Source: Minisyncoccota bacterium (GTDB lineage Bacteria; Patescibacteriota; Minisyncoccia; JAHIHE01; JAGLIN01). Taken from it: 64,000 nucleotides of DNA. Where the stretch lies: contig JAQUYG010000001.1 of assembly GCA_028691985.1 (NCBI GenBank), forward strand, positions 27,617 to 91,616, in the 5' to 3' direction. The notes beneath the pieces are model-generated. The model was not told the origin of the DNA. It was given only the letters and a program-made list of their open reading frames with translations, and searched no databases. Below are positions 20,507 to 35,440 of this stretch, in pieces. Numbering within the stretch: the first letter of the stretch is position 1; every line of letters starts with the position of its first letter. A program made the translations under genes and the position numbers.

Positions 20507-20523
20507 AATCGAGACAAAAAAAG

Positions 20524-20568
20524 AAACATAGCTCGCGTTAACCGCATAAAAGCTATGTTTTTTATTAT
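20524..20568. terminator. Bidirectional intrinsic terminator
   Basis: AAACATAGCT-cgcgttaaccgcataaa-AGCTATGTTTTTTATT. Confidence 0.6.
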
Positions 20569-20581
20569 TTTTCTATTAAGT

Positions 20582-21163: not shown

Positions 21164-22355
21164 TTTTAACTACCCCCTTTTGGATAAACAATTTTTCTAT
21201 TATATTCATAGCTTTTATAAGCTCTTCTGTGGTGGTCGCAAAACATATCCTAATATAATCATCACAAGTCTCTCCAAAGATGATCCCTGGAGCGACTGCA
21301 AGCCCTTCTTGAAGCAGAATCTCTGAACATTCCTCAGAATTAACACCGAATTTCTTCGGTAATTTTACAAATACATAAAAGGCTCCCTTCGGCGGCACAT
21401 ATTCTATACCCCAAAGATCAAAGAACGCACAGATATAATCTTTATTTTTCTTATATTCTTCGTTGCTTTTCTTTATGAAAGCCAGAGAATCTTCGAAATG
21501 ATTATCTATCGCCGCTTTGATAATGAATTGGAGCAGCGAACAAGAATTCCCGTCAATATTGCTCTTTGCGGCTATCATATCCCTGCATTTTGCATTTATC
21601 GCAAGTACAAAGCCTGCGCGCCAGCCAGGAATTGCCCACATCTTGGAAAAACTATTGACTATGATTGTCCGCTCTTTCATCCCCTTAAAACTGGCAATGG
21701 AGACCGGCATCTCGCCTTCCAAAATGATCGTGTTGTAAACCTCGTCTGAAATTACGATAAAGTCATGTTCAATAGCAAGCTGAGCAAGTTCCCCCAGCTC
21801 CTCATTGCTCCATATGACACTCGTAGGATTATTCGGGCTATTTATTATGATAGCCCTGGTATTTTTGGTAATTTTTGCTCTTATTTCTGCAAGCGGTAAA
21901 GAAAAATCCTCATTCGGGCCGACCAATACAAGTATGCCGTCATGAGCGCGAATTATCGCATTATAAGTCGGCCAATCAGAGGCAAAAATTATAATTTCGT
22001 AACCTGGCTTAGTTTCTTGATCGGCCAATGTCGCCGCAACTGCCAGGTCTATACCCTGTTTTGCACCGCTGGTAAAAATAATCTCATCGAGAGAATATTC
22101 CAGAGTGAACATCTTATAAACAAATTCACTTATGCTCTCTCTAATCTCGATAGCACCTTCAACAAAAGTATAGCCGTTATTGGATTCCATCTTCGAGGCT
22201 TCTGCTCCAGCCTCTATCAAAAAAAGAGGAGTAGTTACATGGGGCTCGCCTACATTTAATCTTATCACTGTTTGACCGCCAATAATAAGCTCCAAAATCT
22301 TTGCATTCAACTCATTGAGCGGAGAACCTTTTGCTTTTATTTTTTTTCCTGACAT
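21156..22355 (-). CDS. PLP-dependent aminotransferase, class I/II (aspartate/aromatic type)
   Basis: NSFSKMWAIPGWRAGF is the PLP-Lys region of the family. Confidence 0.85.
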   Translation of the reverse strand: MSGKKIKAKGSPLNELNAKILELIIGGQTVIRLNVGEPHVTTPLFLIEAGAEASKMESNNGYTFVEGAIEIRESISEFVYKMFTLEYSLDEIIFTSGAKQGIDLAVAATLADQETKPGYEIIIFASDWPTYNAIIRAHDGILVLVGPNEDFSLPLAEIRAKITKNTRAIIINSPNNPTSVIWSNEELGELAQLAIEHDFIVISDEVYNTIILEGEMPVSIASFKGMKERTIIVNSFSKMWAIPGWRAGFVLAINAKCRDMIAAKSNIDGNSCSLLQFIIKAAIDNHFEDSLAFIKKSNEEYKKNKDYICAFFDLWGIEYVPPKGAFYVFVKLPKKFGVNSEECSEILLQEGLAVAPGIIFGETCDDYIRICFATTTEELIKAMNIIEKLFIQKGVVKIE

Positions 22356-22502
22356 TTTTCGTTCACTCCTTTTTATTTTTGTTTCTGTTCCATACGAAAT
22401 GTTTGTGAAATGTCAATGAACTGCAAACTTGAGTAAAACTCCCTATGAGCTTACTTCCGAATTTTCGTCCGTTACAAGACGAAAGCTCGAAACTAAGCAC
22501 AT

Positions 22503-22536
22503 AAAAAAACAGCCTCTTGAGACAGGCTGTTTTTCG
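22503..22536. terminator. Bidirectional intrinsic terminator between the two aminotransferase genes
   Basis: AAAAAAACAGCCTcttgagacAGGCTGTTTTTCG. Confidence 0.6.
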
Positions 22537-22663
22537 TGTTATAAACTACGGCAAAAGCGACCTATCTCAAATGACGGCTAAAATAAAAGAAAAACCAGTT
22601 GCTTATGTTGTAATTCATAATTTTCAATTTATAAAGCTATTGTAGCCAAATTATTATTTCATG

Positions 22664-23845
22664 TCAATGCCTGGTTTCTTCCAAAAACTTCTTCATTCTC
22701 TTAACTCCCTCTACAATATCTTCCATTGAGGTTCCAAAAGAAATCCTGAAATAATTATCGAAGCTCTTTCCAAAAAAAATACCCGGAGCGACAGCAATGC
22801 CTGTTTTCTCGAGAAGGGACTCAACAAACTCTCGTGATCCCATATCAAACCCCTTAGGTATCTTAGCAAACAAGTAGAAGGTTCCCTCCGGCTTTTTATA
22901 TTCCATCTTCATACCATCTAGACTTTCACACAAAAAATCTCTCCTTTTTAAATATTCACCCTTTGCCATATCAACGAATCTGAGATAATCCTCAAAATGA
23001 TTTGCCAGCACTTCCTCGACGACCATTTGAAAAAAAGAATTAGTATTCCCATTGATATTACTCTTAACTTTTATCATATTGTCGATTATTTCCCGAGAAG
23101 AAAAGGCAAAACCCAGCCGATAACCTGTCATAGAAAGTGTTTTAGAAAAGCCATCAATCACTATTGCTCGCTCTTTAGCCCCTGGGAAATCAGCGACAGA
23201 AATGTGTTTTTTTCCGTCAAAAACAGTAGAATTATAAACTTCATCTGAAATAATTATAAGATTATGTTTTTCAGCCAACTCTACGATTTCCCCAATATCC
23301 TCCCGCCCATATATCATCCCTACGGGATTGTTAGGGTTGTTTATCACTATTGCCTTGGTATTCTCATTAACAGCTTTTTTTATCGCCTCAATATTGAGAC
23401 CAAAGTTATTAGTAATATCCACCACCACAGGAAGGCCTCCAAAAAATTTGACCTGTTCAACATAGGTCGGCCAATGAGGGGCCACGACGATTACCTCGTC
23501 GTTGCCATTTAAAATCGCCGCAAAGGCCAAAAATAGCGCCTCCTTGGCCCCATTGGTCACAATCACCTCCTCCTTATTATATTCCAGCCCAAAAGTCTTT
23601 TTCTGCAGGTCTGCGAGCAAAAAACGAAGTTTATCCGTCCCGCCCGTGTGATTATAAAAATTATTTTTATCTTTTCCGTTTACAATCTTTATCGCTTCTT
23701 TTACAAATTCTGGACAAGCAAAATCCGGCTGCCCCAGGTTGAACTGCAAAACACTCTTCCCCTCTGCAATTTTATATTTAACATCAGAATCCCACTTATT
23801 TAGAAACGATTCCTGAATGCCTAAGACTTTTCCAGAGAACATCAT
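22664..23845 (-). CDS. PLP-dependent aminotransferase, class I/II, paralogous to 21156..22355
   Basis: DGFSKTLSMTGYRLGF; it has the same domain order as the neighbouring paralog. Confidence 0.85.
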   Translation of the reverse strand: MMFSGKVLGIQESFLNKWDSDVKYKIAEGKSVLQFNLGQPDFACPEFVKEAIKIVNGKDKNNFYNHTGGTDKLRFLLADLQKKTFGLEYNKEEVIVTNGAKEALFLAFAAILNGNDEVIVVAPHWPTYVEQVKFFGGLPVVVDITNNFGLNIEAIKKAVNENTKAIVINNPNNPVGMIYGREDIGEIVELAEKHNLIIISDEVYNSTVFDGKKHISVADFPGAKERAIVIDGFSKTLSMTGYRLGFAFSSREIIDNMIKVKSNINGNTNSFFQMVVEEVLANHFEDYLRFVDMAKGEYLKRRDFLCESLDGMKMEYKKPEGTFYLFAKIPKGFDMGSREFVESLLEKTGIAVAPGIFFGKSFDNYFRISFGTSMEDIVEGVKRMKKFLEETRH

Positions 23846-24675: not shown

Positions 24676-25458
24676 TCACGACCCCGAGAAATCATGCTTT
24701 GGCACAATCTCTATAATTACCGACCTCGGACTAAAATCCACTTTGTCCATAAACGGAAATATATCCTTAGCAATAAATATTTGCTCCTCCTGTCTCTCTC
24801 CGAATACTTTGACATCAAAATTCCGCTCAATCGTAACCCCGCCATGCATCTTTGCACCAGAAGCTTCAACCAACCAAGATCCCCCAGACAGATCCTTAAG
24901 AAAGAATTGCCCATTTTCTATATCCACCTCTTTAATCACTCCCAGAATTATACCCTCTTCCGGCCTATTCCATATCTGATTCTGCCGAACTTTCATATCC
25001 TTATAGAAAGGCGCCCTTCTGGCAAACTCGATTTCTGCTTGCTCTCCTGCCCCGATTGCATATAATCCGGCGCCCAAAACAAAAGACAATAAAATATTTA
25101 ACAATACGATTTTTATGAATCCATAGCGATACCCCGTCTTCGTATGTTCATAATAATAGTAAGCTACAAGAAGAAATATTAAAAATGCCAGAAGCCAGAA
25201 GTAGGGCAATGTCACCAAGACAAGCCCCAAAGGATTATTTCCAAGCATATGATAAAGCCCCCAATCGCTGACCCCGACAAGATACAAAACCACGGCCACG
25301 GAAAGCGACCCGAAAAATATGTTCACAAAAAACACAAGCCAGACTACATATTCCCTAAGAATAAAACGCCACCTAGATTTCGGCTGAATCTTTTTTCCTC
25401 TGATTTCCTCCAGAATACTCGCACTTAAATCTTTTTCCATATATTTATAAGTTAACAC
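24676..25458 (-). CDS. Putative membrane anti-sigma factor, co-transcribed with the ECF sigma upstream
   Basis: The start overlaps the sigma stop. It has a short cytoplasmic N-terminus, TM segments and an extracytoplasmic domain. The call rests on context only. Confidence 0.4.
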   Translation of the reverse strand: MLTYKYMEKDLSASILEEIRGKKIQPKSRWRFILREYVVWLVFFVNIFFGSLSVAVVLYLVGVSDWGLYHMLGNNPLGLVLVTLPYFWLLAFLIFLLVAYYYYEHTKTGYRYGFIKIVLLNILLSFVLGAGLYAIGAGEQAEIEFARRAPFYKDMKVRQNQIWNRPEEGIILGVIKEVDIENGQFFLKDLSGGSWLVEASGAKMHGGVTIERNFDVKVFGERQEEQIFIAKDIFPFMDKVDFSPRSVIIEIVPKHDFSGS

Positions 25459-26035
25459 TCTCCTTTTCCAATTCTTCCTGAAAACTTTTTTTCGCTCTGC
25501 TGATCAGAGTCGCAACTGTCCCCATTGGTTTCTTCAGAATATCAGAAATTTCCTTATAGTCTTTATCCTCCCAAAACCGCAGAATCAGAACCTCCCGATG
25601 TTTCTCGTTGAGACGACCAAGGATTTCTCCTATATTCTTTTTCAGATAATTTTCATCCACCTCCTTATCGGTCTTCATATCAGATGCAAGATTCGCGAGA
25701 AAATCGTTATCCAAATCCAACACACACTGCGGCCTAGCCTTTTTTCGCCGATGGCTATTTATGACTTCATTATGCGTAATTCGATATATCCAAGAAGAAA
25801 ATTTCAGCTGATCGTCGAAAGAATTGAGGTTGATATAAGTCTTGATAAAAACCTCTTGCAAAATATCCTCCGCATCTTCCTTGGAAAATCCGGAAATTCT
25901 TACTATATAAGATAGCAATTTTCGCTCATATCTTTTTATTATATGCAAAAAACAGTCCTGATCTTCCAAAGCCATCTTTACTAGCTCTTCATCAGTCTTT
26001 TGAGAAAACAAATCAATATAGGAATCTTTCTCCAT
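25445..26035 (-). CDS. ECF-type RNA polymerase sigma-70 factor
   Basis: Region 2: DAEDILQEVFIKTYINLNSFDDQLKFSSWIYRITHNEVINSHRRKK. Region 4: REVLILRFWEDKDYKEISDILKKPMGTVATLISRAKK. Confidence 0.85.
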   Translation of the reverse strand: MEKDSYIDLFSQKTDEELVKMALEDQDCFLHIIKRYERKLLSYIVRISGFSKEDAEDILQEVFIKTYINLNSFDDQLKFSSWIYRITHNEVINSHRRKKARPQCVLDLDNDFLANLASDMKTDKEVDENYLKKNIGEILGRLNEKHREVLILRFWEDKDYKEISDILKKPMGTVATLISRAKKSFQEELEKESVNL

Positions 26036-26079
26036 AGGGCGTAATACGGTTTAATATGCTTTTTTATTTCCAAAAGCGT

Positions 26080-26256
26080 TTACTTCTTGAAAATTATCTC
26101 ATCTACCGGAAAAAACACCAGCGCTCCGATGAAATTAGCAATTACTGTCTTGGTCAGATTGTCGTAAGGCAGACAAGCTAGAACCAGATACAAAATCGGT
26201 GTACTAAGCTGCCAACGCATGACATAAAAAAACAGCTTCTTGAATTTTTTATCCAT
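26080..26256 (-). CDS. Possible 58-aa membrane mini-protein, not in the ORF track
   Basis: MDKKFKKLFFYVMRWQLSTPILYLVLACLPYDNLTKTVIANFIGALVFFPVDEIIFKK resembles a GtrA-like fragment. Confidence 0.2.
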   Translation of the reverse strand: MDKKFKKLFFYVMRWQLSTPILYLVLACLPYDNLTKTVIANFIGALVFFPVDEIIFKK

Positions 26257-26669: not shown

Positions 26670-27377
26670 TTATTTTACCAAATAACTTTCTCGTTCCTTT
26701 TTATCAAACCGCTCAATCGCATAACGAAGCATTGTTCTTGGCATTTTTTTGTGATATTTAAGCAGAAAGATTTCTTCTGCCGCCAAGTCCCGCTTTCCCA
26801 CTTCCCGCAGCATCCACCCGACTGCTTTATGCATAAGATCGTGCTCGTCAAAAAGAAGAATTTCTGCAATCTTCAAGGTATCTCCAAAATCGTTTTTACG
26901 GATAAAAGCAAGCGTGGCTATTATCGCAATCCTCCTCTGCCATAGATTATCAGACTTAGCAAGTTCATAAAGCGCCCCCCTGTCCTTATTCAAAAGATGA
27001 TAGCCGAGAATCTTCGGAGCCGAGACATCTACTAAGTCCCAATTATTTATCTTCTTTGAATTCCTTATATAAAAATCAAAGATATTTTTTCTCATGTCCG
27101 CATCGCCTTGCTCGTATTTTTTCATAAGGATAAGAAGCGCGCAGAACCTTTCTTCGTGTATTTTACTTTCAAGCAGCTTTTTCACATCTCCGAACTCTAA
27201 ATCATAGAAACCTCTGACAATCATCCGCTGTACAGGGACTTTTATCCCCCAAAACACATCTCCTTCGCCATATTCCCCCTTGCCTGTTTTGAAAAACCCC
27301 TGCAGAATTTTCGCTTGATTCTCATTAGCCTCATCTGCTAAAACTTTTCTCAAACTACCCAATTTATTATCTTCCAT
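26670..27377 (-). CDS. DNA alkylation repair protein (AlkD-like HEAT-repeat glycosylase family)
   Basis: …FWGIKVPVQRMIV…NNWDLVDVSAPKILGYHL…LWQRRIAIIATLAFIRKNDF…HDLMHKAVGWMLREVGKRD. Confidence 0.65.
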   Translation of the reverse strand: MEDNKLGSLRKVLADEANENQAKILQGFFKTGKGEYGEGDVFWGIKVPVQRMIVRGFYDLEFGDVKKLLESKIHEERFCALLILMKKYEQGDADMRKNIFDFYIRNSKKINNWDLVDVSAPKILGYHLLNKDRGALYELAKSDNLWQRRIAIIATLAFIRKNDFGDTLKIAEILLFDEHDLMHKAVGWMLREVGKRDLAAEEIFLLKYHKKMPRTMLRYAIERFDKKERESYLVK

Positions 27378-27469
27378 AAATTTCCATATTATATCAAAAT
27401 TCTAGCAGAAAAATGCATAAAAAAAAACCCGCTCATAACGGGCCTTCTTTTTTATAGACATGAATGAAA

Positions 27470-28993
27470 TCACTCGACCGCTTCGCTCACAGCAGCATCG
27501 ACATCCGTATCGACTGCCGTTTTCTCCATAATCCGGATCGGATCTCCATCAGATTGGTTTATAAAATCTTTTATGATAGGCACGATGACTCTCTTTTTCC
27601 AATAATAATTGTCTTCAGAAATACTTTTGACAGGAAATATGAGTGCCGGAACCAAATATTCATAACTCTTATTTTCGGTTTTATCATATCTCCAGAAATG
27701 TTCCAGTCCCACAAAAGGAGTATCCAGCTCAATAGTCACCTTTACCGACTCTGTTCTCTCGTCGTACAGCACCGGCTTCGATCTATCAGGACTGTTCACA
27801 CTGTTTATTATTTTATCAAAATCCCGTTCAGTATCATAGAGGGAGCTCTCGTAGTTCTGGACTGTGAGATTGTTGACCGCCGAAACCCTGCCACTACGCA
27901 CATCATAATTAACATTCAGTCCGGATATGTTTCCATAGCCCTCGTAGACTTTTATGTCATTGATAAGAAACGGGTATATGACTGTTACTTCGTCAGGGAT
28001 ATACGCATCTTCAATATTTTTGTAATACATCAAAAAATCCCTATTGACCTCCGGCTCGCCATAGATGCTAGTATCTATCCCATAGCCCGACAAGAAATCA
28101 TTGGCGACAGCTACGATAACTTCGTCATCAGGAATGTCTGAAAGAGAGGGACGGTCTGTTTCATAGCACCCTTCGGAAGTACAAGTGGTGGAATAATAAT
28201 TAGGCCATTTTTCCCAATTTTTATAAATATATGCCGAACCGTTCGTAAAATCTATCTCTGTCCGATAACCAAAATCAGAATTATCCACAAAACTTATATT
28301 ACCGACATTTGCATCGCCAACTTTGCCAAGATCAAACAGATTAAAATTTATCCTACCAGTAACACTACCTCCTTTGACCGAACCGCTTGTTGGAACCTTC
28401 CTGAACACATCCATTTTTTCTTGCTCTATAACAATCTCCTCCCCCGCATAAACATAAGAATAGTACATCGGCCCGAAAGGATAATCGATTTTGGATTCAG
28501 CATTGCCAGGAGGAGTAGAATATCTGCCTCCGCCCGCGCCTGCCGGAACGCTTTCCATATTAACCTCATCAGAAGAACTTTTCTCTACATTAAGATCAGA
28601 AAGTACGCCGAAAGCATTATCTTTGAGTTGTGCAACTGTCGGTTCGGAGGAAAAGAACAGATTCCTTCCATTCTCCATATCGACACCGGACCTATTTGAA
28701 ATTCCAGAAACAGAAATCAGGATAACCACGACAACCACCAACCCCCCGATAGCAAAAGACAACCCCTTATACATTTCCAAAAAGGAAAATTCCTTCTTCC
28801 CCACTACTTTCATCGGACCTACACTCTCCACAAGCTGCTTTTTTAGGGAGAGGACAAATTCTTCATCCGGCTCCAAGTCCGGCTCTATCTCCAAGAGTTC
28901 CTCAAGTACTTTAATGATTTCTACTTCATCGGACCTGAGACTGGGATCTATCTTATATATATCCTTTAAGATATCCTTTATTTTCTCGTTCAT
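27470..28993 (-). CDS. Putative anti-sigma factor with large extracytoplasmic domain (507 aa), paired with the sigma at 29003..29560
   Basis: Acidic cytoplasmic N-terminus, a single TM (LSFAIGGLVVVVVILISV), then a large Ser/Asp/Tyr-rich domain. It lies 10 nt downstream of the ECF sigma. Confidence 0.45.
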   Translation of the reverse strand: MNEKIKDILKDIYKIDPSLRSDEVEIIKVLEELLEIEPDLEPDEEFVLSLKKQLVESVGPMKVVGKKEFSFLEMYKGLSFAIGGLVVVVVILISVSGISNRSGVDMENGRNLFFSSEPTVAQLKDNAFGVLSDLNVEKSSSDEVNMESVPAGAGGGRYSTPPGNAESKIDYPFGPMYYSYVYAGEEIVIEQEKMDVFRKVPTSGSVKGGSVTGRINFNLFDLGKVGDANVGNISFVDNSDFGYRTEIDFTNGSAYIYKNWEKWPNYYSTTCTSEGCYETDRPSLSDIPDDEVIVAVANDFLSGYGIDTSIYGEPEVNRDFLMYYKNIEDAYIPDEVTVIYPFLINDIKVYEGYGNISGLNVNYDVRSGRVSAVNNLTVQNYESSLYDTERDFDKIINSVNSPDRSKPVLYDERTESVKVTIELDTPFVGLEHFWRYDKTENKSYEYLVPALIFPVKSISEDNYYWKKRVIVPIIKDFINQSDGDPIRIMEKTAVDTDVDAAVSEAVE

Positions 28994-29002
28994 ATTTTTA
29001 AT

Positions 29003-29560
29003 TTATCTTATTAAAATTCCAAGAATTACAATATTTAAAATGTCCTCCCGTTTTGCGCCCCTTACAAATCTTGAAAAGAACATCTTAAGACCACCTTCGC
29101 TCCTGCCTGTCGCTTCGGCAATTTCCCGGAAGCTCATTCCTCCCCACACTCGCATCAAGATAATTTCCCTTTGTTCCGGCTTCAACCTGTTTAGATATTG
29201 ACCCACTTTCTGAAGCCGATTTCTGTCATCTATCTTTTTATCAATATCCTCGTTCAGACATATATCCCAAAAATCGTCGATATCAACCTCCTCTTTTTTC
29301 TTACGATAATGGTCTATGACCCCGTTCCTCGCAATCGCATATAACCAGGAAGAAAAGCTCGTATCCGCGTCGAAACTTCCGATCTTTTCGACCACCTTCA
29401 AAAATGTCCGACTTGTCAAATCCTCGGCTGTTTCTTTATGCATAGTCTTAAAAAACACAAAACGATAGATTTTCTCCACATAAAAATCATAGAGGACACC
29501 GAACTCGGACCAATCCCCTTTCTGACACTTCCTAATGATTTTTTTCTCATCGAATCCCAT
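29003..29560 (-). CDS. ECF-type RNA polymerase sigma-70 factor (second copy)
   Basis: ETAEDLTSRTFLKVVEKIGSFDADTSFSSWLYAIARNGVIDHYRKKK is region 2. REIILMRVWGGMSFREIAEATGRSEGGLKMFFSR is region 4. Confidence 0.85.
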   Translation of the reverse strand: MGFDEKKIIRKCQKGDWSEFGVLYDFYVEKIYRFVFFKTMHKETAEDLTSRTFLKVVEKIGSFDADTSFSSWLYAIARNGVIDHYRKKKEEVDIDDFWDICLNEDIDKKIDDRNRLQKVGQYLNRLKPEQREIILMRVWGGMSFREIAEATGRSEGGLKMFFSRFVRGAKREDILNIVILGILIR

Positions 29561-29589
29561 AAGATTCTTAAAAGATTAACATCAGTCAC

Positions 29590-29883
29590 CTAAAGATTCG
29601 GAAACAGATTACCACTTAAAAGTTCCCAGACATAACTGAGTCCGAAGATCATTATGACAGCAAAAACGCTTACAAAAGCTACTGAAAAAATATCATCCCC
29701 GATATTTTTCCTATTTTTTTCTCTTGGCATTTTTCTAAGTCTTATCCGCTTATATTCCATATAACGGGTAGGATTTAAAAAAGTAACAATCATCTTTGTC
29801 AAAAAATTTGCAAAAACGGAGGCTCTTTCGCACTTCGAAAAGCCTCCGTTTTCCATTATCCTATTCGGCTGCCTTAACCTCAA
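29590..29883 (-). CDS. Hypothetical small membrane protein. It probably starts internally at MEYKRIRLRK.
   Basis: Basic N-terminus plus one TM. It overlaps the Hsp20 stop. Confidence 0.25.
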   Translation of the reverse strand: MRLRQPNRIMENGGFSKCERASVFANFLTKMIVTFLNPTRYMEYKRIRLRKMPREKNRKNIGDDIFSVAFVSVFAVIMIFGLSYVWELLSGNLFPNL

Positions 29884-30361
29884 CCAATTTACTTTGAGCT
29901 TCAGGTTTTTTCTTAACTTTCACAGTAAGTGTGCCATTTTTACAGCTTGCCTCGATCTTGTCCGGATCCGCGCCCTTGGGAAGCTCAAACTCTCGATAAA
30001 AACTGCCGCTATACCTTTCGATGCGATGCCAAGTTTTCCCTTTTTCTTCTTTTTCTTCTTCGCTCTTACCGCTGATTACAATGTTGTCGCCGGAAATTTC
30101 TACCTTGATATCTTCCGGTTTGACTGCAGGAATATCAGCCATGATATGGAATTCTTTTTCCGTTTCTGCGACATCGACCCTAGGCATCCAGGATTCCATC
30201 TCGCGATAAAAACCTTTTCCTATTCCGGACCAAGGCTTCAACCAACTCTCAGGAAAAAATCTTTCCATCAACGCCTGCGGCTCCACCCACGGCAATACCT
30301 CAGAGCTCATCGGCTCTTTTCTTCGCTCTGTTTTTTGGACTGGAAGTTTCATATTAATCAC
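29861..30361 (-). CDS. Hsp20/alpha-crystallin family small heat-shock protein
   Basis: …PRVDVAETEKEFHIMADIPAVKPEDIKVEISGDNIVISGKSEEEKEEKGKTWHRIERYSGSFYREFELP…. Confidence 0.85.
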   Translation of the reverse strand: MINMKLPVQKTERRKEPMSSEVLPWVEPQALMERFFPESWLKPWSGIGKGFYREMESWMPRVDVAETEKEFHIMADIPAVKPEDIKVEISGDNIVISGKSEEEKEEKGKTWHRIERYSGSFYREFELPKGADPDKIEASCKNGTLTVKVKKKPEAQSKLVEVKAAE

Positions 30362-30461
30362 CTCCTTTCTAAAAAAATAGAAAAAGAAAAATCGGAATTT
30401 TAAAAAGTACGAAATTTATTACACGACCGACCAGACAAACAAAACCTATGAGTTTTTAATC

Positions 30462-31361
30462 TTATTTCCCCTTAAAAACCTTATAGAAATATTCGAACCT
30501 GCCTGCTATTTTTCGCGAGGCTTCCTCTGCAGTTATTTCCCCCGCTTTATATGCCAAAAGCGAATCCCAAAAAATTGTCCTCCCGATTGCAAAACCGATT
30601 ACACCTTCAACGCCCGCACCTGCCACCAGCCACTTCTCTAGCTGCTCATCGTTAGCATGTCGCCCCAGAATAATTATATCAGAATCCCTTCCTTGCGCCC
30701 TTACCTGCTCAACCAACAGTTCATAATCCTCTCTTTCCTCCAAGCCCTCAATCTTCCAAACAGCCGGTTCCACTCCTCCGTCCTGAAGTTCTTCTATCAT
30801 CAGTTCCATCAGTTTCGGCCTCATCTCTGTATCATAGATTTCTTTGTCTCCCTCCACGATTTCCAGCTGCTTTTCCGTAGGCGGCACCAATGGCTCTATC
30901 ATCATCTTATAGCCCTTCTCACGACAATAATCACTCAAAAACTTTAACTTCTCCGTTTGCCGCAAATTTAATTCTTGATCTCCATCCGGATTGTAACGGA
31001 CCAGCACCTTAACGAACTCCGGATCATATTTTTCTATATGTTCCTTAAAATTTTCCCCAAATTCAAAATCAAATTCCGCCTGTCCGCTTTTTTCCGTGCA
31101 GATACAAATACGATATCCATTCTGCTTCGCATCTTTCAAAATCGCATCTCCGAATTCTTCGTCCACCAAAATCGCACCGATTTCCTTCGGCACCGCACCA
31201 TTTTCAATCGCCATCTTGAAGCCCTCATAAACTATCCCCTTAAAAAAAGATATTCTCTCAGCTTCCTCCGGCGTCGGTTTCCCCAATATCCCGAACATTT
31301 TTTCCTGAAAAGATCCACGATGATCGAACGGCAGGACAAACAACTCATTTTTTTCTGACAT
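30462..31361 (-). CDS. LacD/DUF2090-like class-I-aldolase-fold (TIM barrel) protein
   Basis: The N-terminal FVLPFDHRGSF resembles the LacD/DUF2090 'DxRG' start. The length and secondary-structure pattern fit a TIM barrel. This is a tentative family call. Confidence 0.45.
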   Translation of the reverse strand: MSEKNELFVLPFDHRGSFQEKMFGILGKPTPEEAERISFFKGIVYEGFKMAIENGAVPKEIGAILVDEEFGDAILKDAKQNGYRICICTEKSGQAEFDFEFGENFKEHIEKYDPEFVKVLVRYNPDGDQELNLRQTEKLKFLSDYCREKGYKMMIEPLVPPTEKQLEIVEGDKEIYDTEMRPKLMELMIEELQDGGVEPAVWKIEGLEEREDYELLVEQVRAQGRDSDIIILGRHANDEQLEKWLVAGAGVEGVIGFAIGRTIFWDSLLAYKAGEITAEEASRKIAGRFEYFYKVFKGK

Positions 31362-31451
31362 TTTAGGCTAGATTATTCTTATTAATATTTTTATTATAAC
31401 ATTTTGTCTATAGAATGGAAACTTTTTAAAATGAGCTGTGACCGTTTTTAA

Positions 31452-33932
31452 TTAAAGCAGGTTCGCTTGCAAGTGATAATAGGGCGGACGATTCTTATAT
31501 CGCTTAATTGCCATATGAATGACTTCCTCTAGAAAATCACCGTAGTCCATTCCTGTCAGCTTTGCCACAGAAGGCACGCACGATGTTAGATTGATGGTAG
31601 GATTAGGATTAAGCTCTAGGACATAGGGATTTCCATTCTTATCCACCCTGATTTCCACTCTTCCATAATCATGGCAATCTAAAATATTATAAGTGTCCAG
31701 CGCGATTTCACTGATAACCGCTTCCAATTTTTTGCTTATATTCTTCGGAGGTCTTTGTACCGATATATATTTTTTATAGACTTCTTCCTCTCCATATTTC
31801 GATTCAAAGGGATATATATGCCAATAGCCCTCTGGCATTTTGTCAAAAACCGAACGGGAAAGCGGCAACACGCGCAAATCATCTTCCTCGCTTCCGATGA
31901 TTGAAACATCGTATTCATCCCCCTCGATATACTCTTCGATGAGTGCCGGTCTTCCCATTTCCTTCACAACATACTCCAATTGCCCCTTGAGCTGTTCTTT
32001 ATTGGTTACGACAGAGTTATTTGTAATACCGATGGAATTGTCTGTATTCGCGGGTTTTACAATCAGGGGATATTTAAGATTCTCTCTGACCTTATCTTCC
32101 AACGAATAGACATAATCCCATTCAGGTGTAGGAATTTTGTGATAGTTCAAGAGTTTTTTCACGCGAATCTTGTCGATACACAGGCTCAAAGTGAAAGGAT
32201 TAGAGCCAGTGTAGGGAATTTCCAAAACATCCAAAAGTGAAGCGACATGCGGCTCCAAAAGGCTGGAATTATTAATTCTCTCACAGACATTAAATACCAA
32301 ATCCACATCGCTATTCTTCAAATCGTTAAAAGCCTTTCCTACATCGTTAAAATCAAAAAAACTTATCCTATAACCCCTCTCCTTCAAAGCATTTTGAATA
32401 TTGACCCCTATCGTAGTCAGCTCTTTTTCTAATGTTTCGTCTTCATTCTTGTCATAAAGATTGCAAGCGATACCGATGTGCAGATTCCTCTGATCCTTAA
32501 CGGACATTTTTTGTATTTTTTCTATCTTTTCAACCCTCTTTGCAGCTTCGGTTTTAAGAATCGACGAAGATCGATGGTCTTTTCTTAGCGTTTTTCCTAT
32601 CGACGAAGCGGAGTGAAAACGCGCCACTTCATATTCTATAAGTTTCTCCGCCTCCTCCATATTTTCCTCAGCCTCAGAAGAATTATCGCCCGACACCGTC
32701 ATCCATCCCAGATATTCATAGCCTTCCGGCGGCGCCATTACCGTATCCCCCACTTTCTTGAAAAATTTAACCTCCTCGACAAAATCTTTTTTATTTATCC
32801 CCGGGTCAATATCTAACTGCACGACCACTCCCGAATGATCAGAAAGGAAAGTCTTGGCCAATACATATTCTTTTGCTTCTTCAATCTTCATTTTGGGAAC
32901 ATAAACCCCCATCGCAATTTTAACTGCGCCTTCGATAAGATCTACCCCCCAGACCTTCTTCACACTTGAATACATCTCATCGCCACCCATCCGCAAATTC
33001 GCCTCAATCGGCACCACCCCGCGCCTTGTCACTTTTGCCTCAAAATGGATGCATCCGTCGCACACACCCGCTTTCTCTAGTGTCTCCTCCACCATCGCAA
33101 TGATATCTTCTTGATCATCGTCCGGAAGGTTGGAAGGCGTAAGCCGATAAGTCTCAATAAAAAATGGCTCATGCGTTGCGCTGTTATCGGAGATAGAAAA
33201 GAATTTTATTATTCCATTCTGAACCAAAAGATCAACATCCACTTCACTACCGTCAATATATTCCTCGACCATAATCTGCTTTCCATCGCTGAAAGCCGAT
33301 TCCACTTGCTCCGAAATCGAAGTTTTTACATATTCGAATTTACTTTCCAGTTCTCCGGCATCCTCCACTTTAATCACGAAAGCGCTCGAAGATCCAAAAG
33401 TCGGCTTAATAACAACAGGAAAGGAAAAATTGTCTCGCACAAAATCCAAATCCTTTTCAGAATCGATTGCTCGATGATGAGGTGCCGCAATTTCATTTTC
33501 CTCACAAAAATCCCGAAAAAGCTGCTTATTGCGCACTCCACTCGAAACAGCATAAGGAATTCCGATAAATCCGAACTTATCAACGATTTTAGAAGTCAAA
33601 AGCACATCATCTTCCCAAAAAGTCAACGCCCCTTCGATTTTTTCATCTGGATTATTTTTAATAAACTCCCGCACCGCTCGGAGCGCTTCGGAATGCTTGG
33701 CATTATCCGCCAAAATCCACCTATCCACATAAGGCTCCGCCCAACTCTCTTTCTCACCAAGAACCACAAGCCTCACGCCCGATTTTTTAAGTCTCTGCAA
33801 TATGAATTTTTTCTTGATGGACCCGGTGCTTACCAAAAGCACTGTTCGCCCCGCGATTTTGTCGTTTTTAGAAAAAACTTTATTACTTATTTTCTTGCTG
33901 AACTTAATAACTTTTTTTGCCGTTTTTTTCAT
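31452..33932 (-). CDS. Two-module ATP-grasp ligase (826 aa): an N-terminal ATP-grasp joined to a C-terminal D-Ala-D-Ala-ligase-like ATP-grasp
   Basis: N-half: …FPVVIKPTFGSSSAFVIKVED…IMVEEYIDGSEVDVDLLV…IEANLRMGGDEM. C-half: …YPLIVKPANTDNSIGITNNSVV…ALIEEYIEGDEYDVSIIGS…YGRVEIRVDKNGNPYVLELNPNP. Confidence 0.75.
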   Translation of the reverse strand: MKKTAKKVIKFSKKISNKVFSKNDKIAGRTVLLVSTGSIKKKFILQRLKKSGVRLVVLGEKESWAEPYVDRWILADNAKHSEALRAVREFIKNNPDEKIEGALTFWEDDVLLTSKIVDKFGFIGIPYAVSSGVRNKQLFRDFCEENEIAAPHHRAIDSEKDLDFVRDNFSFPVVIKPTFGSSSAFVIKVEDAGELESKFEYVKTSISEQVESAFSDGKQIMVEEYIDGSEVDVDLLVQNGIIKFFSISDNSATHEPFFIETYRLTPSNLPDDDQEDIIAMVEETLEKAGVCDGCIHFEAKVTRRGVVPIEANLRMGGDEMYSSVKKVWGVDLIEGAVKIAMGVYVPKMKIEEAKEYVLAKTFLSDHSGVVVQLDIDPGINKKDFVEEVKFFKKVGDTVMAPPEGYEYLGWMTVSGDNSSEAEENMEEAEKLIEYEVARFHSASSIGKTLRKDHRSSSILKTEAAKRVEKIEKIQKMSVKDQRNLHIGIACNLYDKNEDETLEKELTTIGVNIQNALKERGYRISFFDFNDVGKAFNDLKNSDVDLVFNVCERINNSSLLEPHVASLLDVLEIPYTGSNPFTLSLCIDKIRVKKLLNYHKIPTPEWDYVYSLEDKVRENLKYPLIVKPANTDNSIGITNNSVVTNKEQLKGQLEYVVKEMGRPALIEEYIEGDEYDVSIIGSEEDDLRVLPLSRSVFDKMPEGYWHIYPFESKYGEEEVYKKYISVQRPPKNISKKLEAVISEIALDTYNILDCHDYGRVEIRVDKNGNPYVLELNPNPTINLTSCVPSVAKLTGMDYGDFLEEVIHMAIKRYKNRPPYYHLQANLL

Positions 33933-34241
33933 CTCTTTTTCAAATATTTTAAAAAATAAAAAAAGACTAAATTCAAATCTAGTCTTCCTTTAGAAGTTTA
34001 TAAAAACAAGTCTCCGATTTTCCAAACCCACTCTTATCCGGAGGCTCCCCGATGTCTTCAATTGTAAGTTCCATATTTTTAACTAATCCCGATAGTCATA
34101 AATATCAGTAAATACAGTATAGAATAAAGATTTTGAAAGTCAATCATTAAGAATCTTTCATTTAAACCTCTCTTGCTTAAAAATCGAAACAGATATGCTT
34201 TATTTATTTTTCAAACGATATTCTTCAAATACTTTTTTATT

Positions 34242-34269
34242 TGTCATTCCGAGCTTATTGAGGAATCGC
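34242..34269 (+). repeat. Partial copy (5' hairpin only) of the TGTCATTCCG repeat family
   Basis: TGTCATTCCGAGCTTATTGAGGAATCGC, compared with the copy-1 start TGTCATTCCGGGCTTGACCCGGAATCTGCG. Confidence 0.4.
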
Positions 34270-34368
34270 TTTATCACCACCCAAGCCTACACCCTCAAGT
34301 TTATCTGAAATATTTTTAAATTCATTCATAAATTTCAAACTTCCGCATATTGCAATTTTCATTTTTTA

Positions 34369-34950
34369 TTAATTATACAGTAAAATCTTTTTTAGTATAT
34401 TCAAAACAATCGGCAATTCACAAATACCGTCATCCCCGCCAAAATGTCTATTGTTTTCTTCAATAAAAGTTTTAACACCCATAGCCTCTTCGAAAAACAT
34501 TTTGTTTATTTCCAAAGGAACACAGGGGTCATTATCAGAAAATATTGCAAAAAAAATTTCAGACTTTTTCTTAACTTCTTGAAAATTTATCGCGTCTTTA
34601 TTCCATTCTGCGGCGATTTCATTTTCTTCGGGAGTTTCCAAGTCAAAGAGTTCGATCCACGGCACTACCATGATTACCCCGCCGCAAACTTCTCCCTTAT
34701 CAGATTTTTCTAAAAATCTCAAAATGGCCTGACATCCGATACTGTGTCCCACGAAATAAGTATTCTTACCAAAATCACCGACCAATTTTCGCAAACAATC
34801 AACCTATTCCGCTGTTTGAGGATTTTCCGTATGAGGCATCTCAGGGATTAAAACCTTAAAACCCTCTTTTTCTTCTTCCTTTTCGAGCCAAGGAAGCCGA
34901 TCTTCTTTAAGATATCCTCCCCAACCGTGGATTATAAAAAGTCTTTTCAT
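34369..34950 (-). pseudogene. RBBP9/YdeN-like serine hydrolase interrupted by an in-frame TAG (rc of 34804-34806) at the conserved Trp position
   Basis: Manual translation: MKRLFIIHGWGGYLKEDRLPWLEKEEEKEGFKVLIPEMPHTENPQTAE*VDCLRKLVGDFGKNTYFVGHSIGCQA… The nucleophile elbow GHSIG is intact. The paralog next door has W (GNWLKVIGEYG) where this gene has the stop. Confidence 0.6.
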
Positions 34951-34993
34951 TTTTAATAAGCTCTATCTCCACGCCCAATCTCTCCGCCAGGGC

Positions 34994-35440
34994 CTATGCC
35001 TTTTCAACCGAGACATAAGGACCATTATCAGAATAATAAATATGAAAGTTTTTGCAGTTCCCTTTGATTTTTTCCCAATCGAAATCTTTATCGACAAAAC
35101 TTTTATTAATCACATCAAAATCTTCATTTCCTAAAAAATCAACAAAACCTGAAACAAAAAAACACGCCTTAATAGGTTTTTCCAATTTTTCCAAAACACT
35201 AAGAATAAAGACCGGCCCCAGAATGTGGCCGATAAAGATAGTCTCTTTATTAATGTAATATCCATATTCCCCGATCACTTTCAGCCAGTTCCCGAGACTC
35301 TGACCCGCTGGCGTAGGAAAATTAGGCACAAAAACTTGATAATTATTCCGTTCAAGCTCATCTTTCAGCCACGGAAACCAATTTTCTTTCGAGCTTCCAT
35401 AAGCGCCATGAATTATAAAAACATTTTTCATGAAATCCAT
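34994..35440 (-). CDS. RBBP9/YdeN-like serine hydrolase paralog with a Ser-to-Ile change at the nucleophile (GHILG). It ends at a TAG, and homology continues past that TAG.
   Basis: …VFIIHGAYGSSKENWFPWL…FIGHILGPVF…YSDNGPYVSVEKA*ALAERLGVEIELIKN. This aligns with VPLEINKMFFEEAMGVKTFIEEN of the neighbouring paralog. Confidence 0.55.
   Translation of the reverse strand: MDFMKNVFIIHGAYGSSKENWFPWLKDELERNNYQVFVPNFPTPAGQSLGNWLKVIGEYGYYINKETIFIGHILGPVFILSVLEKLEKPIKACFFVSGFVDFLGNEDFDVINKSFVDKDFDWEKIKGNCKNFHIYYSDNGPYVSVEKA

Follow-up and report, generated by a model that had tools for sequence, protein, structure and literature searches.

Gene layout of the interval

The question raised by this locus is whether six neighbouring genes of a Minisyncoccota bacterium, all lying on the minus strand of the 64,000-nt stretch analysed (the window), constitute one envelope-stress regulon or several separate functional units. 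The first-pass annotation had proposed a single ECF/Hsp20-linked, stress-inducible pathway. The six ORFs were confirmed, together with the reported sequence of 90-nt and 100-nt gaps, an overlap, and gaps of 29 nt and 9 nt, and Pfam and NCBIfam searches indicated that the domain calls made for the six genes were essentially right. The genes are as follows:

31452–33932, minus strand: two-module ATP-grasp ligase, 826 aa (domain searches, homologues, AF2 model, structure comparison)
30462–31361, minus strand: stand-alone DUF2090 class-I-aldolase-like TIM barrel, 299 aa (PF09863; supporting paper PMC9007349)
29861–30352, minus strand: Hsp20 small heat-shock protein, 163 aa counted from the ATG behind a AAAGGAGG ribosome-binding site
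29590–29760, minus strand: single-span membrane protein, 56 aa, first gene of the sigma module (gene call; hydrophobic span at aa 19–50)
29003–29560, minus strand: ECF-type sigma factor, 185 aa (Sigma70_r2 and r4_2; TIGR02937 at 86 bits against a cutoff of 42.9)
27470–28993, minus strand: putative anti-sigma factor, 507 aa (9 nt after the sigma gene; one predicted span)

The hsp20 ORF is listed as 29861–30361 (166 aa) and has an HSP20 match in Pfam (E 5e-27). Its overlap with the following frame exists between ORFs, but not between genes, since the 97-aa ORF at 29590–29883 is a TTG-extended form of the 56-aa gene given by the gene callers. The 100 nt between the hsp20 stop codon and the 56-aa gene are occupied by a strong terminator hairpin, which has a folding energy of −26.1 kcal/mol and a z-score of −4.13, with none of 200 shuffled sequences being as stable:

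29806–29853, minus strand: intrinsic terminator directly 3′ of hsp20, within the 97-aa TTG ORF (folding)

Hsp20 would be an ordinary small chaperone with its own terminator behind it.

Conservation of the neighbourhood

Comparison of loci carrying the ligase gene (the fusion) shows that the gene set is not a conserved one. A DUF2090 gene was found within 5 kb of the fusion in just 6 of 145 distinct loci, all six belonging to close relatives with fusions at least 72% identical. The adjacency of the two genes persists throughout this clade of 72–100% identity, within which the presence of Hsp20, of the ECF pair and of inserted genes varies: locus L082 has no ECF pair and contains an inserted NADAR gene on the opposite strand, L084 is devoid of Hsp20, and in L002 and L004 the fusion is separated from DUF2090 by a GNAT6 gene. 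In many loci, the fusion is a solitary gene flanked by genes of the opposite strand. Of 67 well-flanked loci, 17 have an ECF sigma gene no more than 5 kb from the fusion and 22 have AlkD in that range; most of these loci belong to one other clade, and a loose, ancient linkage may exist.

Promoter and leader of the ligase gene

The following elements precede the ligase and DUF2090 genes:

34116–34143, minus strand: sigma-70-type promoter of the ligase leader, TTGACT-N16-TATACT (consensus score 10/12)
33979–34074, minus strand: leader uORF of 31 codons, MELTIEDIGEPPDKSGFGKSETCFYKLLKED, starting with MELTIEDIGEPPDK (read from the sequence)
33945–33992, minus strand: intrinsic terminator, a 16-bp hairpin and U-run about 45 nt before the ligase ATG (folding)
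31393–31421, minus strand: extended −10 promoter-like site before the DUF2090 gene, TTTCCA-N17-TG-TATAAT (10/12, TG present; consensus match only)

A promoter arrangement TTGACT/TTGACA-N16/17-TATACT/TATAAT precedes the fusion in L002, L003, L004, L082 and L084, and the leader uORF and terminator are conserved in relatives. The ECF promoter motif suggested in the first-pass annotation was absent: a scan for GGAAC-N14-19-CGT found no match upstream of any of the six genes.

These data bear directly on the single-regulon proposal, according to which the ECF sigma factor would drive the ligase, the aldolase-like protein and Hsp20 towards a protective amide-linked metabolite (an osmolyte or a wall modification). 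The genes are indeed co-directional with short gaps, an ECF sigma gene recurs near the fusion at the frequency given above, and the GNAT, ATP-grasp and PP-loop partner set of other lineages loosely recalls the synthesis of the osmolyte NAGGN. The fusion, DUF2090 and hsp20 may even be co-transcribed by read-through, no terminator being visible between them and the promoter calls being consensus matches only. The proposal nevertheless fails, because the gene set is not conserved (single modules being missing even among close relatives), the terminator cuts hsp20 off from the sigma module, the ligase has a sigma-70-type promoter and leader of its own, and the ECF motif is absent; moreover, DUF2090 is elsewhere embedded in sugar-phosphate operons. 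One regulon of six genes is therefore regarded as very unlikely. The interval is better described as a set of mutually independent functional units, two at the least and probably four, whose proximity is confined to one family-level lineage of Patescibacteria; this explanation, including the ligase and the switch described below, is given moderate confidence. The ligase unit would be self-contained and transcribed from its own sigma-70-type promoter through the leader.

The leader uORF contains E-P-P-D codons at 34036–34047, and its stop codon (33979–33981) falls within the 5′ arm of the terminator. A uORF with an acidic-PP[D/N/G/S] motif, ending within 100 nt of the start codon, precedes 13 of 74 fusion genes and none of 532 other genes of the same loci (Fisher p 5e-13), with the motif having been defined post hoc from six related sequences and the 13 positives representing only about six lineages. 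The uORFs have no strong Shine–Dalgarno sites, the ligase leader has no match in Rfam, and no alternative anti-terminator is evident in it. Folding with a ribosome footprint retained the hairpin when the ribosome was placed on the PP codons and abolished it when the ribosome was placed on the stop codon, an outcome seen in 9 of 11 leaders.

At intrinsic terminators, a polyproline stall breaks the coupling between translation and transcription, a coupling shown in E. coli to depend on EF-P (PMC5021804); acidic or G-starting codons ahead of PP are typical arrest contexts (PMC11611912). The ligase leader looks like a polyproline-stall attenuator, with the direction of regulation deduced from geometry and folding. 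A ribosome reading the leader smoothly would reach the stop codon and mask the terminator, so that the ligase is transcribed; a stall at Pro-Pro, caused by poor EF-P function, low prolyl-tRNA or uncoupling, would let the hairpin form and end transcription. Since the stop codon lies inside the terminator stem, the predicted logic is that stalling switches the ligase off. In Salmonella mgtP and the hisL- and trpL-type leaders, an intrinsic terminator upstream of a regulated gene is likewise preceded by a short ORF in which Pro codons follow one another, but the ligase leader differs from them in the position of its stop codon and in the predicted sign of the switch. Its acidic-Pro-Pro-Asp/Asn/Gly motif and the gene that it would regulate are new among polyproline attenuators.

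Another view of the uORF is that it encodes the substrate, a microviridin-like ribosomal peptide modified or extended by the ATP-grasp modules, acetylated by a GNAT and exported by an ABC transporter. Ribosomal peptide clusters typically comprise a small ORF, a leaky terminator and a modifying enzyme; in some loci, the two ATP-grasp modules with a GNAT and an ABC exporter parallel mdnB/C/D/E, and the N-terminal motif of the uORF is conserved while its C-terminal tail varies. Several features make this highly improbable: the uORF precedes only the 13 of 74 fusion genes mentioned, its acidic-PP-D/N/G residues fit ribosome-arrest motifs and not Thr/Ser/Lys–Asp/Glu cross-link cores, and the tails shrink to five residues (L012).

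The two-module ATP-grasp ligase

The ligase contains a module of the L-amino-acid-ligase (LAL) type (about aa 25–437), a linker (aa 440–467) predicted to be disordered in the AF2 model (pLDDT 81), and a module of the Ddl type (about aa 485–815). Pfam and NCBIfam searches revealed ATP-grasp_4 and LAL_C2 at about aa 130–436 and Dala_Dala_lig_C at aa 610–805. The ATP-, Mg- and catalytic residues are intact in both modules (K176, E310/N312/R314, K626, K712, R758, E773/N775), and, among solved structures, dipeptide ligases, which act on free amino acids, come closest.

Two ATP-grasp modules per chain and weak matches to the CPSase_L_D2 and cyanophycin synthetase models could recall an ordinary CarB in split or fused form, or else a piece of a cyanophycin synthetase, the outcome that the first-pass annotation had named as fatal to its proposal. 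Scores far below both cutoffs refute this identity, the probability of which is next to nil: TIGR01369 gave 65 bits (cutoff 1027), ruling out CarB, and TIGR02068 gave 63 bits (cutoff 850), ruling out a cyanophycin-synthetase fragment; the expected Mur-ligase, oligomerisation and MGS domains are all absent from the 826-aa fusion. Nor is a two-module ATP-grasp protein unusual outside carbamoyl-phosphate synthetase in Patescibacteria, as had been assumed: the fusion occurs in at least 225 species representatives. All 120 homologues among the matches listed span the full length with 60% identity or more, and two-module relatives reach down to 29% identity. The family is mostly confined to Patescibacteria, where it is patchy and not universal.

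The ligase has two catalytically intact ATP-grasp modules on a flexible linker, one of the LAL type and one of a divergent Ddl type. Because both retain their motifs and the nearest structures are dipeptide ligases, the fusion would most likely form amide bonds on small substrates; this part of the first-pass reading, with the fold and domains, stands, and the shared stress pathway does not. Each module would make an acyl-phosphate and then one amide bond, and the two could jointly build a short peptide from free amino acids, namely a di- or tripeptide or a peptide–amine conjugate. Characterised L-amino acid ligases (BL00235 of Bacillus licheniformis, BacD/YwfE, RizA) correspond to the N-terminal module, here fused to a second ligase, with only 17–22% identity. 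In layout, the closest working analogy may be the bifunctional glutathione synthetase GshF, in which one chain carries two ATP-dependent ligases, the second a Ddl-like ATP-grasp, that work one after the other to make the tripeptide glutathione from free amino acids. The first module of GshF has a gamma-glutamylcysteine ligase fold and, unlike that of the fusion, is not an ATP-grasp.

Modification of a protein, as by RimK or tubulin–tyrosine ligase, is hardly probable. The fusion keeps about 60% identity between classes, more than is usual for an enzyme acting on small molecules, and a target in the translation apparatus (e.g., EF-P) would give the EF-P-dependent arrest motif of the leader a feedback role; in L141, two copies of the fusion flank a lysine-2,3-aminomutase-like radical SAM gene, which recalls EpmB. 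The leader geometry, however, predicts less ligase upon stalling, whereas homeostatic feedback would need the opposite sign. The most similar structures are ligases of free amino acids, and small molecules are the substrates of the partner enzymes (decarboxylase, epimerase-like, aminotransferase).

Partners of the ligase and its possible product

In other lineages, the recurrent partners of the fusion include a FemAB-like GNAT, a PP-loop enzyme of QueC/MurL-like type (carboxylate-adenylating), a PLP decarboxylase of the Orn/DAP type, an enolase-superfamily enzyme (dipeptide-epimerase-like), a third ATP-grasp and, in some cases, an ABC exporter; this window contains none of them. Of 107 loci, 57 have a GNAT6 or MurL-like gene directly beside the fusion in the same orientation. 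The gene of the PP-loop protein (about 455 aa) is adjacent to the fusion in about 16% of loci, often with a 4-nt overlap. Its similarity to the MurL model NF041275 is colinear but weak (E 1.4e-6; 134–449 against 133–443 of 447), and NCBIfam matches to MurL range from E 1.4e-6 to 0.01. MurL, of the alternative MurD2/MurL route to D-Glu in Xanthomonas, uses ATP, yields AMP and epimerises the C-terminal L-residue of a peptide (PMC8788868).

Because other lineages encode tailoring enzymes beside the ligase, these partners suggest that its product would be a tailored small peptide, possibly containing a D-residue; the idea draws on the weak MurL similarity and on family-level annotations of enzymes that this window lacks.

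A role in making peptidoglycan precursors is also conceivable. D-Ala-D-Ala, or a variant of it, would then come from the Ddl-type module and a second stem or bridge dipeptide from the LAL-type module; together with the epimerases among the partners (MurL-like and enolase-type), the fusion would provide Patescibacteria with a racemase-independent route to wall peptides containing D-residues. The partner families do have murein-linked members (FemAB-like GNAT, MurL-like, MR_MLE, Orn/DAP decarboxylase family), MR_MLE being the family of L-Ala-D/L-Glu epimerases, and the very high conservation is what a core function would show. Still, this is judged unlikely. The C-terminal module scores below both curated Ddl cutoffs (243 and 245.65 bits), and the D-Ala1-binding triad of the DdlB/VanA family is altered, with Ser150 replaced by an invariant Asn632 and Tyr216 by Trp in most members; the fusion family adds invariant motifs of its own, CERINNSSLLEPH and KPANTDNSIGITN. 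In addition, the MurL-like partner family also occurs in the murein-free DPANN archaea, the distribution of the fusion across the phylum is patchy, and none of the loci examined has mur genes nearby.

DUF2090 protein

The 299-aa protein matches PF09863 over model positions 33–306 of 310 (122.7 bits, E 2e-35) and has the K/E/K pattern expected of class-I aldolases (FVKVLV at 116, MMIEPLV at 153, VWKIEG at 201). At least 7998 homologues were found in CPR bacteria and archaea. Stand-alone DUF2090 genes of other Patescibacteria and archaea are located in PfkB–DUF2090–RpiB–Rpe operons or beside GlpX-type FBPase. These contexts make it probable that the protein serves central sugar metabolism as an aldolase of sugar phosphates (ketose phosphates), which would make it a unit separate from the ligase. 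It differs from its known relative in lacking the IolC kinase fusion, and the neighbours listed point to a ketose-phosphate substrate different from that of the IolC-fused form.

Sigma module

The 507-aa protein has no family match in Pfam or NCBIfam. Its predicted topology comprises about 75 cytoplasmic residues, a span at about aa 78–100 and about 400 extracytoplasmic residues; judging by position and topology, it is a putative single-pass anti-sigma factor. The gene is followed by a terminator:

27419–27451, minus strand: terminator after the anti-sigma gene (15-pair stem, then a T-run)

The small membrane protein, the ECF sigma factor and the anti-sigma factor would form an ordinary envelope-signalling module, of which the window holds two copies by layout. 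The second small-protein/ECF/anti-sigma module is situated at 24676–26256 and has the same layout.

Gene Composition and Transcription Signals of the Interval

The ORF listing contains all six minus-strand ORFs claimed in the first-pass annotation, together with the claimed gaps, which, counted from the gene of the two-module ATP-grasp fusion (the ligase) to the 507-aa ORF, comprise 90 nt, 100 nt, an overlap, 29 nt and 9 nt. The overlap of hsp20 with the small gene exists at the level of ORFs and is an artefact of extension to a TTG start, since the gene callers place the small gene at 29590-29760.

Genes of the interval, the terminator at its 3' end and the second sigma module
31452-33932, minus: ligase (fusion), 826 aa; ATP-grasp_4 and LAL_C2 in the first half, Dala_Dala_lig_C in the second half (Pfam, NCBIfam)
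30462-31361, minus: DUF2090 protein, 299 aa (Pfam/NCBIfam, E 2e-35)
29861-30361, minus: HSP20, 166 aa (Pfam/NCBIfam)
29590-29883, minus: 97-aa ORF with a TTG start (ORF listing)
29590-29760, minus: 56-aa product, the shorter form of the 97-aa ORF (gene callers)
29003-29560, minus: ECF-type sigma factor, 185 aa, with sigma-70 regions 2 and 4
27470-28993, minus: 507-aa ORF without a Pfam or NCBIfam match; one predicted membrane span, about residues 78-100
27419-27451, minus: second terminator, 3' of the anti-sigma gene
26080-26256, minus: 58-aa membrane protein
25445-26035, minus: second ECF sigma factor
24676-25458, minus: overlapping multi-span putative anti-sigma factor

The 100 nt between the hsp20 stop codon and the 56-aa gene include a hairpin and, after it, a U-run (-26.1 kcal/mol, z -4.1, none of the 200 shuffles being as stable). 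An extended -10 site, TTTCCA-N17-TG-TATAAT, lies upstream of the DUF2090 gene, and a promoter, TTGACT-N16-TATACT, is located 180 nt upstream of the ligase and is kept in five relatives as TTGACT/TTGACA-N16/17-TATACT/TATAAT. The ECF-type promoter suggested in the first-pass annotation precedes none of the six genes: GGAAC-N14-19-CGT occurs twice in the window against 4.5 matches expected, and the four matches of GAAAC-N-CGTM (3.6 expected) include none of relevance. A search for terminators between the ligase, DUF2090 and hsp20 genes found none, so read-through across these three is possible. It is safe to state that the interval holds at least two transcription units, and there are probably four.

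The 185-aa sigma factor exceeds the TIGR02937 cutoff (86 bits versus 42.9) and contains regions 2 and 4. The 507-aa protein is a putative anti-sigma factor on account of its 9-nt spacing from the sigma gene and its single membrane span, Pfam and NCBIfam searches giving no anti-sigma domain match. Both Hsp20 and this module of small protein, ECF sigma and anti-sigma factor are ordinary. A second module of the same kind, comprising a 58-aa membrane protein, a sigma factor and a putative anti-sigma factor, occupies 24676-26256 and is kept in two relatives (loci L082 and L084). The remainder of the window is ordinary chromosome, encoding NrdD, FtsZ/FtsA, HisRS, signal peptidase, TopA, DprA, RecQ, glutamine synthetase and others; a tRNA scan found none, and an Rfam search of the whole window at gathering scores gave no matches.

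Conservation of the Neighbourhood

Loci encoding the fusion were collected from 185,579 species-representative genomes (225 matches, 80 kept), from JGI metagenomes (80 loci kept) and by exact-protein look-ups, which gave 145 distinct full-length fusion loci after de-duplication. Only six of the 145 (L002, L003, L004, L082, L084 and L096) have a DUF2090 gene no more than 5 kb from the fusion, and in all six the fusion is at least 72% identical to that of the window. Even within this clade of close relatives, pieces have been lost or gained independently: in L082 a NADAR gene on the opposite strand separates fusion and DUF2090 and the ECF/anti-sigma pair is missing, L084 is devoid of Hsp20, and L002 and L004 carry a gene for a GNAT protein of ~295 aa between fusion and DUF2090. 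Many other lineages have the fusion by itself, flanked by opposite-strand genes. Of the 67 well-flanked loci, 17 have an ECF sigma gene and 22 a gene for AlkD no more than 5 kb from the fusion; these loci belong mainly to one clade with the fixed order AlkD-SIMPL-fusion-GNAT-SET...ECF, where several genes, including one on the opposite strand, separate the sigma factor from the fusion.

The first-pass annotation had read the array as possibly one envelope-stress-inducible pathway, linked to the ECF sigma factor and Hsp20, and had itself named a lack of joint conservation as grounds against this. The proximity of DUF2090 in only 6/145 loci and the turnover of modules in the close clade therefore tell against its reading; the order is not kept beyond close relatives, a terminator follows hsp20, and promoter-like sites precede individual genes, so that neither a single operon nor a unified stress pathway is supported. 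What stands is the anatomy of the interval, and its notable item is the LAL- and Ddl-type ligase with its leader. The failure of the operon reading warns against inferring the function of genes in compact genomes from their shared direction.

The window also contains an AlkD-type DNA alkylation repair gene (26670-27377, minus), downstream of the ligase; in a Falkowbacteria-type clade AlkD lies ~0.9-1.3 kb upstream of it. The recurrence is shared by two differently organised clades and may represent an old synteny.

The DUF2090 Protein

The match to DUF2090 (PF09863, 122.7 bits versus a gathering score of 27) places the 299-aa protein in the class-I aldolase clan, and inspection found K/E/K motifs, putatively equivalent to the Schiff-base Lys and general-acid Glu of LacD. 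Price et al. proposed that DUF2090, whose catalytic Lys and Glu are conserved, is a LacD-related class-I aldolase and that the substrate of DUF2090 fused to IolC is 2-deoxy-5-keto-gluconate-6-phosphate (PMC9007349). Stand-alone DUF2090 proteins of ~300 aa are extremely common, with at least 7998 homologues and identities above 50% across many CPR groups, Bathyarchaeia and Thermoproteota. In the DUF2090 context loci L086-L091 (homologues P0196, P0213 and P0212), Levybacteria-type genomes show PfkB-DUF2090-RpiB-Rpe beside PGK, and in a Bathyarchaeia MAG a GlpX-type fructose bisphosphatase begins 4 nt past DUF2090. The window protein is best read as a putative ketose-phosphate aldolase that belongs to central metabolism and does not partner the ligase; judging by the PfkB-DUF2090-RpiB-Rpe setting, DUF2090 may catalyse the aldolase step in the sugar-phosphate metabolism of these lineages.

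The Two-Module Ligase

All of the best 120 homologues are full length (~795-845 aa), their identity to the window fusion being 60% or higher; the groups represented are Paceibacteria, Komeilibacteria, Falkowbacteria, Gracilibacteria/Peregrinibacteria and others. When 1.84 billion representatives were searched exhaustively without a profile, two-module relatives were found down to 38% identity in Roizmanbacteria and 29% in a Bdellovibrionales-labelled MAG, as were stand-alone relatives of each module. A Peregrinibacteria locus (L093:6001-9932) contains three LAL-type ATP-grasp genes in tandem, all stand-alone, akin to the N-module and encoding 434, 416 and 447 aa, which suggests that the amino-acid-ligase repertoire is enlarged in some CPR lineages.

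The AlphaFold2 model (mean pLDDT 81) contains two globular modules joined by a disordered linker at residues 440-467. Both modules have the ATP-grasp fold with the conserved Lys, acidic Mg ligands and catalytic Arg, and all of the expected catalytic residues are kept in 40 homologues (K176, E310, N312 and R314; K626, K712, R758, E773 and N775). The N-module, composed of an ATP-grasp_4 core and LAL C-terminal domain 2, matches solved LALs structurally over its full length, as expected of a member of that family.

The C-module scores below the cutoffs of both D-Ala-D-Ala ligase models, PRK01372 (207.4 bits, cutoff 243) and TIGR01205 (174 bits, cutoff 245.65). The D-Ala1 site of these ligases is formed by the triad Glu15-Ser150-Tyr216, and Ser281 serves D-Ala2 (E. 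coli DdlB numbering). Alignment to the Yersinia DdlB structure 4zqi indicated that the D-Ala-site residues as a set are not retained: Ser150 is replaced by Asn632, which is invariant in the family, Tyr216 corresponds to Tyr713 here and to Trp in the family consensus and most members, and Ser281 is Ser here and Asp in the consensus. The module also contains the invariant family-specific motifs CERINNSSLLEPH and KPANTDNSIGITN. Because of the scores below cutoff, the changed D-Ala-site residues and these motifs, the C-module, which appears Ddl-like in its working, should not be classed as a D-Ala-D-Ala ligase.

A routine CarB or a cyanophycin-synthetase fragment, the alternatives raised in the first-pass annotation, are both excluded by scores. 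The TIGR01369 cutoff for the large subunit of carbamoyl-phosphate synthetase was not reached, nor was its combination of two repeats with oligomerisation and MGS-like regions found; the same is true of TIGR02068 and of the pairing of an ATP-grasp G domain with a Mur-ligase M domain in cyanophycin synthetase. The features of a graspetide (microviridin-type) macrocyclase, an MdnB/C-type ATP-grasp enzyme and a precursor peptide with Thr/Ser/Lys and Asp/Glu core motifs, were also lacking, and the CPR ATP-grasp enzymes reported in PMC8939145 are graspetide-type and belong to a different family. Searches of the literature on ATP-grasp enzymes in Patescibacteria/CPR and on LAL-Ddl fusions did not find the family described. 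The fusion is predicted, from sequence comparison and modelling, to be an uncharacterised and very strongly conserved two-step peptide ligase of hundreds of Patescibacteria species. Biosynthesis in Patescibacteria is minimal, and an ATP-costly peptide synthesis that is retained there likely matters for the envelope or for symbiotic life.

Putative Polyproline Leader Upstream of the Ligase Gene

Elements between the ligase promoter and the ligase ATG
33979-34074, minus: leader uORF of 31 codons, MELTIEDIGEPPDKSGFGKSETCFYKLLKED
33945-33992, minus: terminator, 16-bp hairpin and U-run, ~45 nt before the ligase start

The TAG stop codon of the uORF lies inside the 5' arm of the hairpin, and the same layout is present in L002, L003, L004, L082, L084 and L096. 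The general plan, seen at 33945-34145 (minus) of the window and upstream of the fusion in L002, L003, L004, L009, L012, L037, L082, L084, L096, L103 and L151, includes a sigma-70-type promoter, a uORF of 25-40 codons with an acidic residue followed by Pro-Pro-Asp/Asn/Gly, and a terminator containing or abutting the uORF stop codon. Leaders also occur in unrelated lineages, where the flanking peptide sequence is different.

Leader motifs in other lineages
L009, L103: DDRPPN / DDRPPD
L012 (Peregrinibacteria): EEEPPD
L037: NEPPN
L151, L153: SEPPD
L102: ETPPN

At the second Pro codon the third base varies freely and the amino acids are kept. When fusion genes preceded by a gap of 120 nt or more were searched for a uORF with acidic-PP[D/N/G/S] ending within 100 nt of the start, 13 of the 74 had one, versus none of 532 other genes of the same loci (Fisher p 5e-13), the 13 representing about six lineages and the motif having been set after the first six sequences had been seen. 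This enrichment and the third-base variation support selection of the putative leader at the peptide level.

In the XPP/PPX hierarchy, PPD, PPN and PPG are arrest contexts when preceded by an acidic residue or by a codon that begins with G. The same contexts are described as typical of EF-P-dependent arrest (PMC11611912), and Elgamal et al. reported that EF-P keeps translation and transcription coupled, preventing early stops at intrinsic terminators past polyproline codons (PMC5021804). In 9 of 11 leaders, constrained folds keep the terminator in place under a ribosome footprint on the Pro-Pro codons and lose it under one on the uORF stop codon. Fluent translation of the uORF would then permit read-through into the ligase, and a stall at Pro-Pro would lead to termination before it.

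Attenuation through an alternative anti-terminator is the competing arrangement; a weak 7-bp option was all that inspection by eye offered, and the terminator persisted in the constrained folds. Simple occlusion by the ribosome is therefore favoured. A search of the leader against Rfam at E values up to 10 gave chance-level matches only, leaving no known riboswitch or T-box ahead of the ligase. Conservation of the uORF sequence, enrichment and terminator geometry are as expected of an attenuator; uORF translation and regulated termination are predicted. The leader looks like a polyproline (EF-P-sensitive) attenuator which, as far as the literature searches show, has not been described; if so, it would provide a compact natural case of polyproline/EF-P-dependent transcription attenuation outside enterobacteria.

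Just upstream of the ligase promoter, at 34255-35440 (minus), there are two tandem partial Ser_hydrolase (PF06821) ORFs, which cover positions 2-133 and 54-171 of the profile, and the relative L004 has one ORF in their place; 34255-34362 is a 35-codon remnant ORF (MKIAICGSLKF...). This looks like gene decay or duplication.

Partner Genes in Other Lineages and the Possible Product

De novo clustering of fusion neighbours revealed two recurrent partners, one or the other of which adjoins the fusion in 57 of 107 loci. The commonest is a GNAT protein of ~300 aa (PF13480, E 1.6e-5; a weak match to the FemAB-type TIGR03019), whose gene starts 3-30 nt past the fusion stop codon in 40 of the 107; L002:4492-5376 and L004:7452-8351 show it in close relatives. 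In the window, the corresponding site between fusion and DUF2090 is a 90-nt gap.

The second partner, a family of ~455 aa without a Pfam match, adjoins the fusion in 17/107 loci (~16%); it either precedes the fusion, overlapping it by 4 nt, or directly follows it, and the adjacency survives rearrangement (examples are L016:8628-9992, L050:8637-10043 and L134:8486-9880). It contains an SFGKDS PP-loop motif and four invariant Cys, and its alignment with the NCBIfam MurL model is colinear and weak (best E 1.4e-6, residues 134-449 versus 133-443 of 447). A QueC-like PP-loop fold with a weak relationship to the peptide epimerase MurL is suggested for this family, and translational coupling to the ligase is predicted in the loci where the two adjoin. 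In L158 and L170 the fusion and MurL-like genes overlap and are separate genes, not one fused protein. PDB sequence searches with profiles of the GNAT and MurL-like families gave only chance-level or PP-loop matches.

Same-strand runs with further enzymes
L139, L140, L144: fusion, MurL-like, MR_MLE, DegT-like aminotransferase, GNAT, PLP Orn/DAP/Arg-type decarboxylase
L013, L016, L047, L050, L076, L119, L121: MurL-like, fusion, third ATP-grasp (~445 aa), PLP decarboxylase; then an ABC exporter in some
L141: fusion, MurL-like, lysine-aminomutase-like radical SAM, second fusion

MR_MLE is the enolase superfamily, to which L-Ala-D/L-Glu epimerases belong. Profiles of the GNAT and MurL-like families detected nothing among all ORFs of the 64-kb window, and the other partners are also absent from it. 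The partners suggest a short peptide made from free amino acids in two to four ATP-grasp steps and then tailored by adenylation/epimerisation, decarboxylation and N-acylation. The kept partner set (FemAB-like GNAT, QueC/MurL-like, decarboxylase, epimerase-like, extra ATP-grasp, ABC exporter) offers concrete, testable substrate hypotheses. That the product serves peptidoglycan strictly would fit the Ddl-type module and the MurL resemblance; this is argued against by the presence of the MurL-like family in DPANN archaea as well as CPR bacteria, and by the lack of mur genes near the fusion in every locus examined.

A broader proposal, which taken as a whole we consider unlikely, would make the ligase the core of an undescribed ATP-grasp-based small-peptide pathway, neither NRPS-dependent nor ribosomal, specific to ultra-small symbionts (Patescibacteria and possibly DPANN), with a product containing D-residues and gating by polyproline arrest. 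The D-residues would arise in the peptide through two epimerases, one adenylating and MurL/QueC-like, the other of the enolase type. Synthesis would be gated by an attenuator of a new class, a polyproline arrest peptide that reports EF-P or prolyl-tRNA status, and the product might be a racemase-free building block of wall peptides or an exported factor for host interaction.

The window also encodes, 23 kb from the ligase at 56667-57413 (minus), a Peptidase_S51 protein; dipeptidase E and cyanophycinase belong to this family, and the protein might act on aspartyl dipeptides. A cluster at 19200-23845 comprises genes for prephenate dehydrogenase, prephenate dehydratase and two aminotransferases of class I/II. 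One would not quite expect these final steps of Phe/Tyr synthesis in a Patescibacteria genome, which is reduced.
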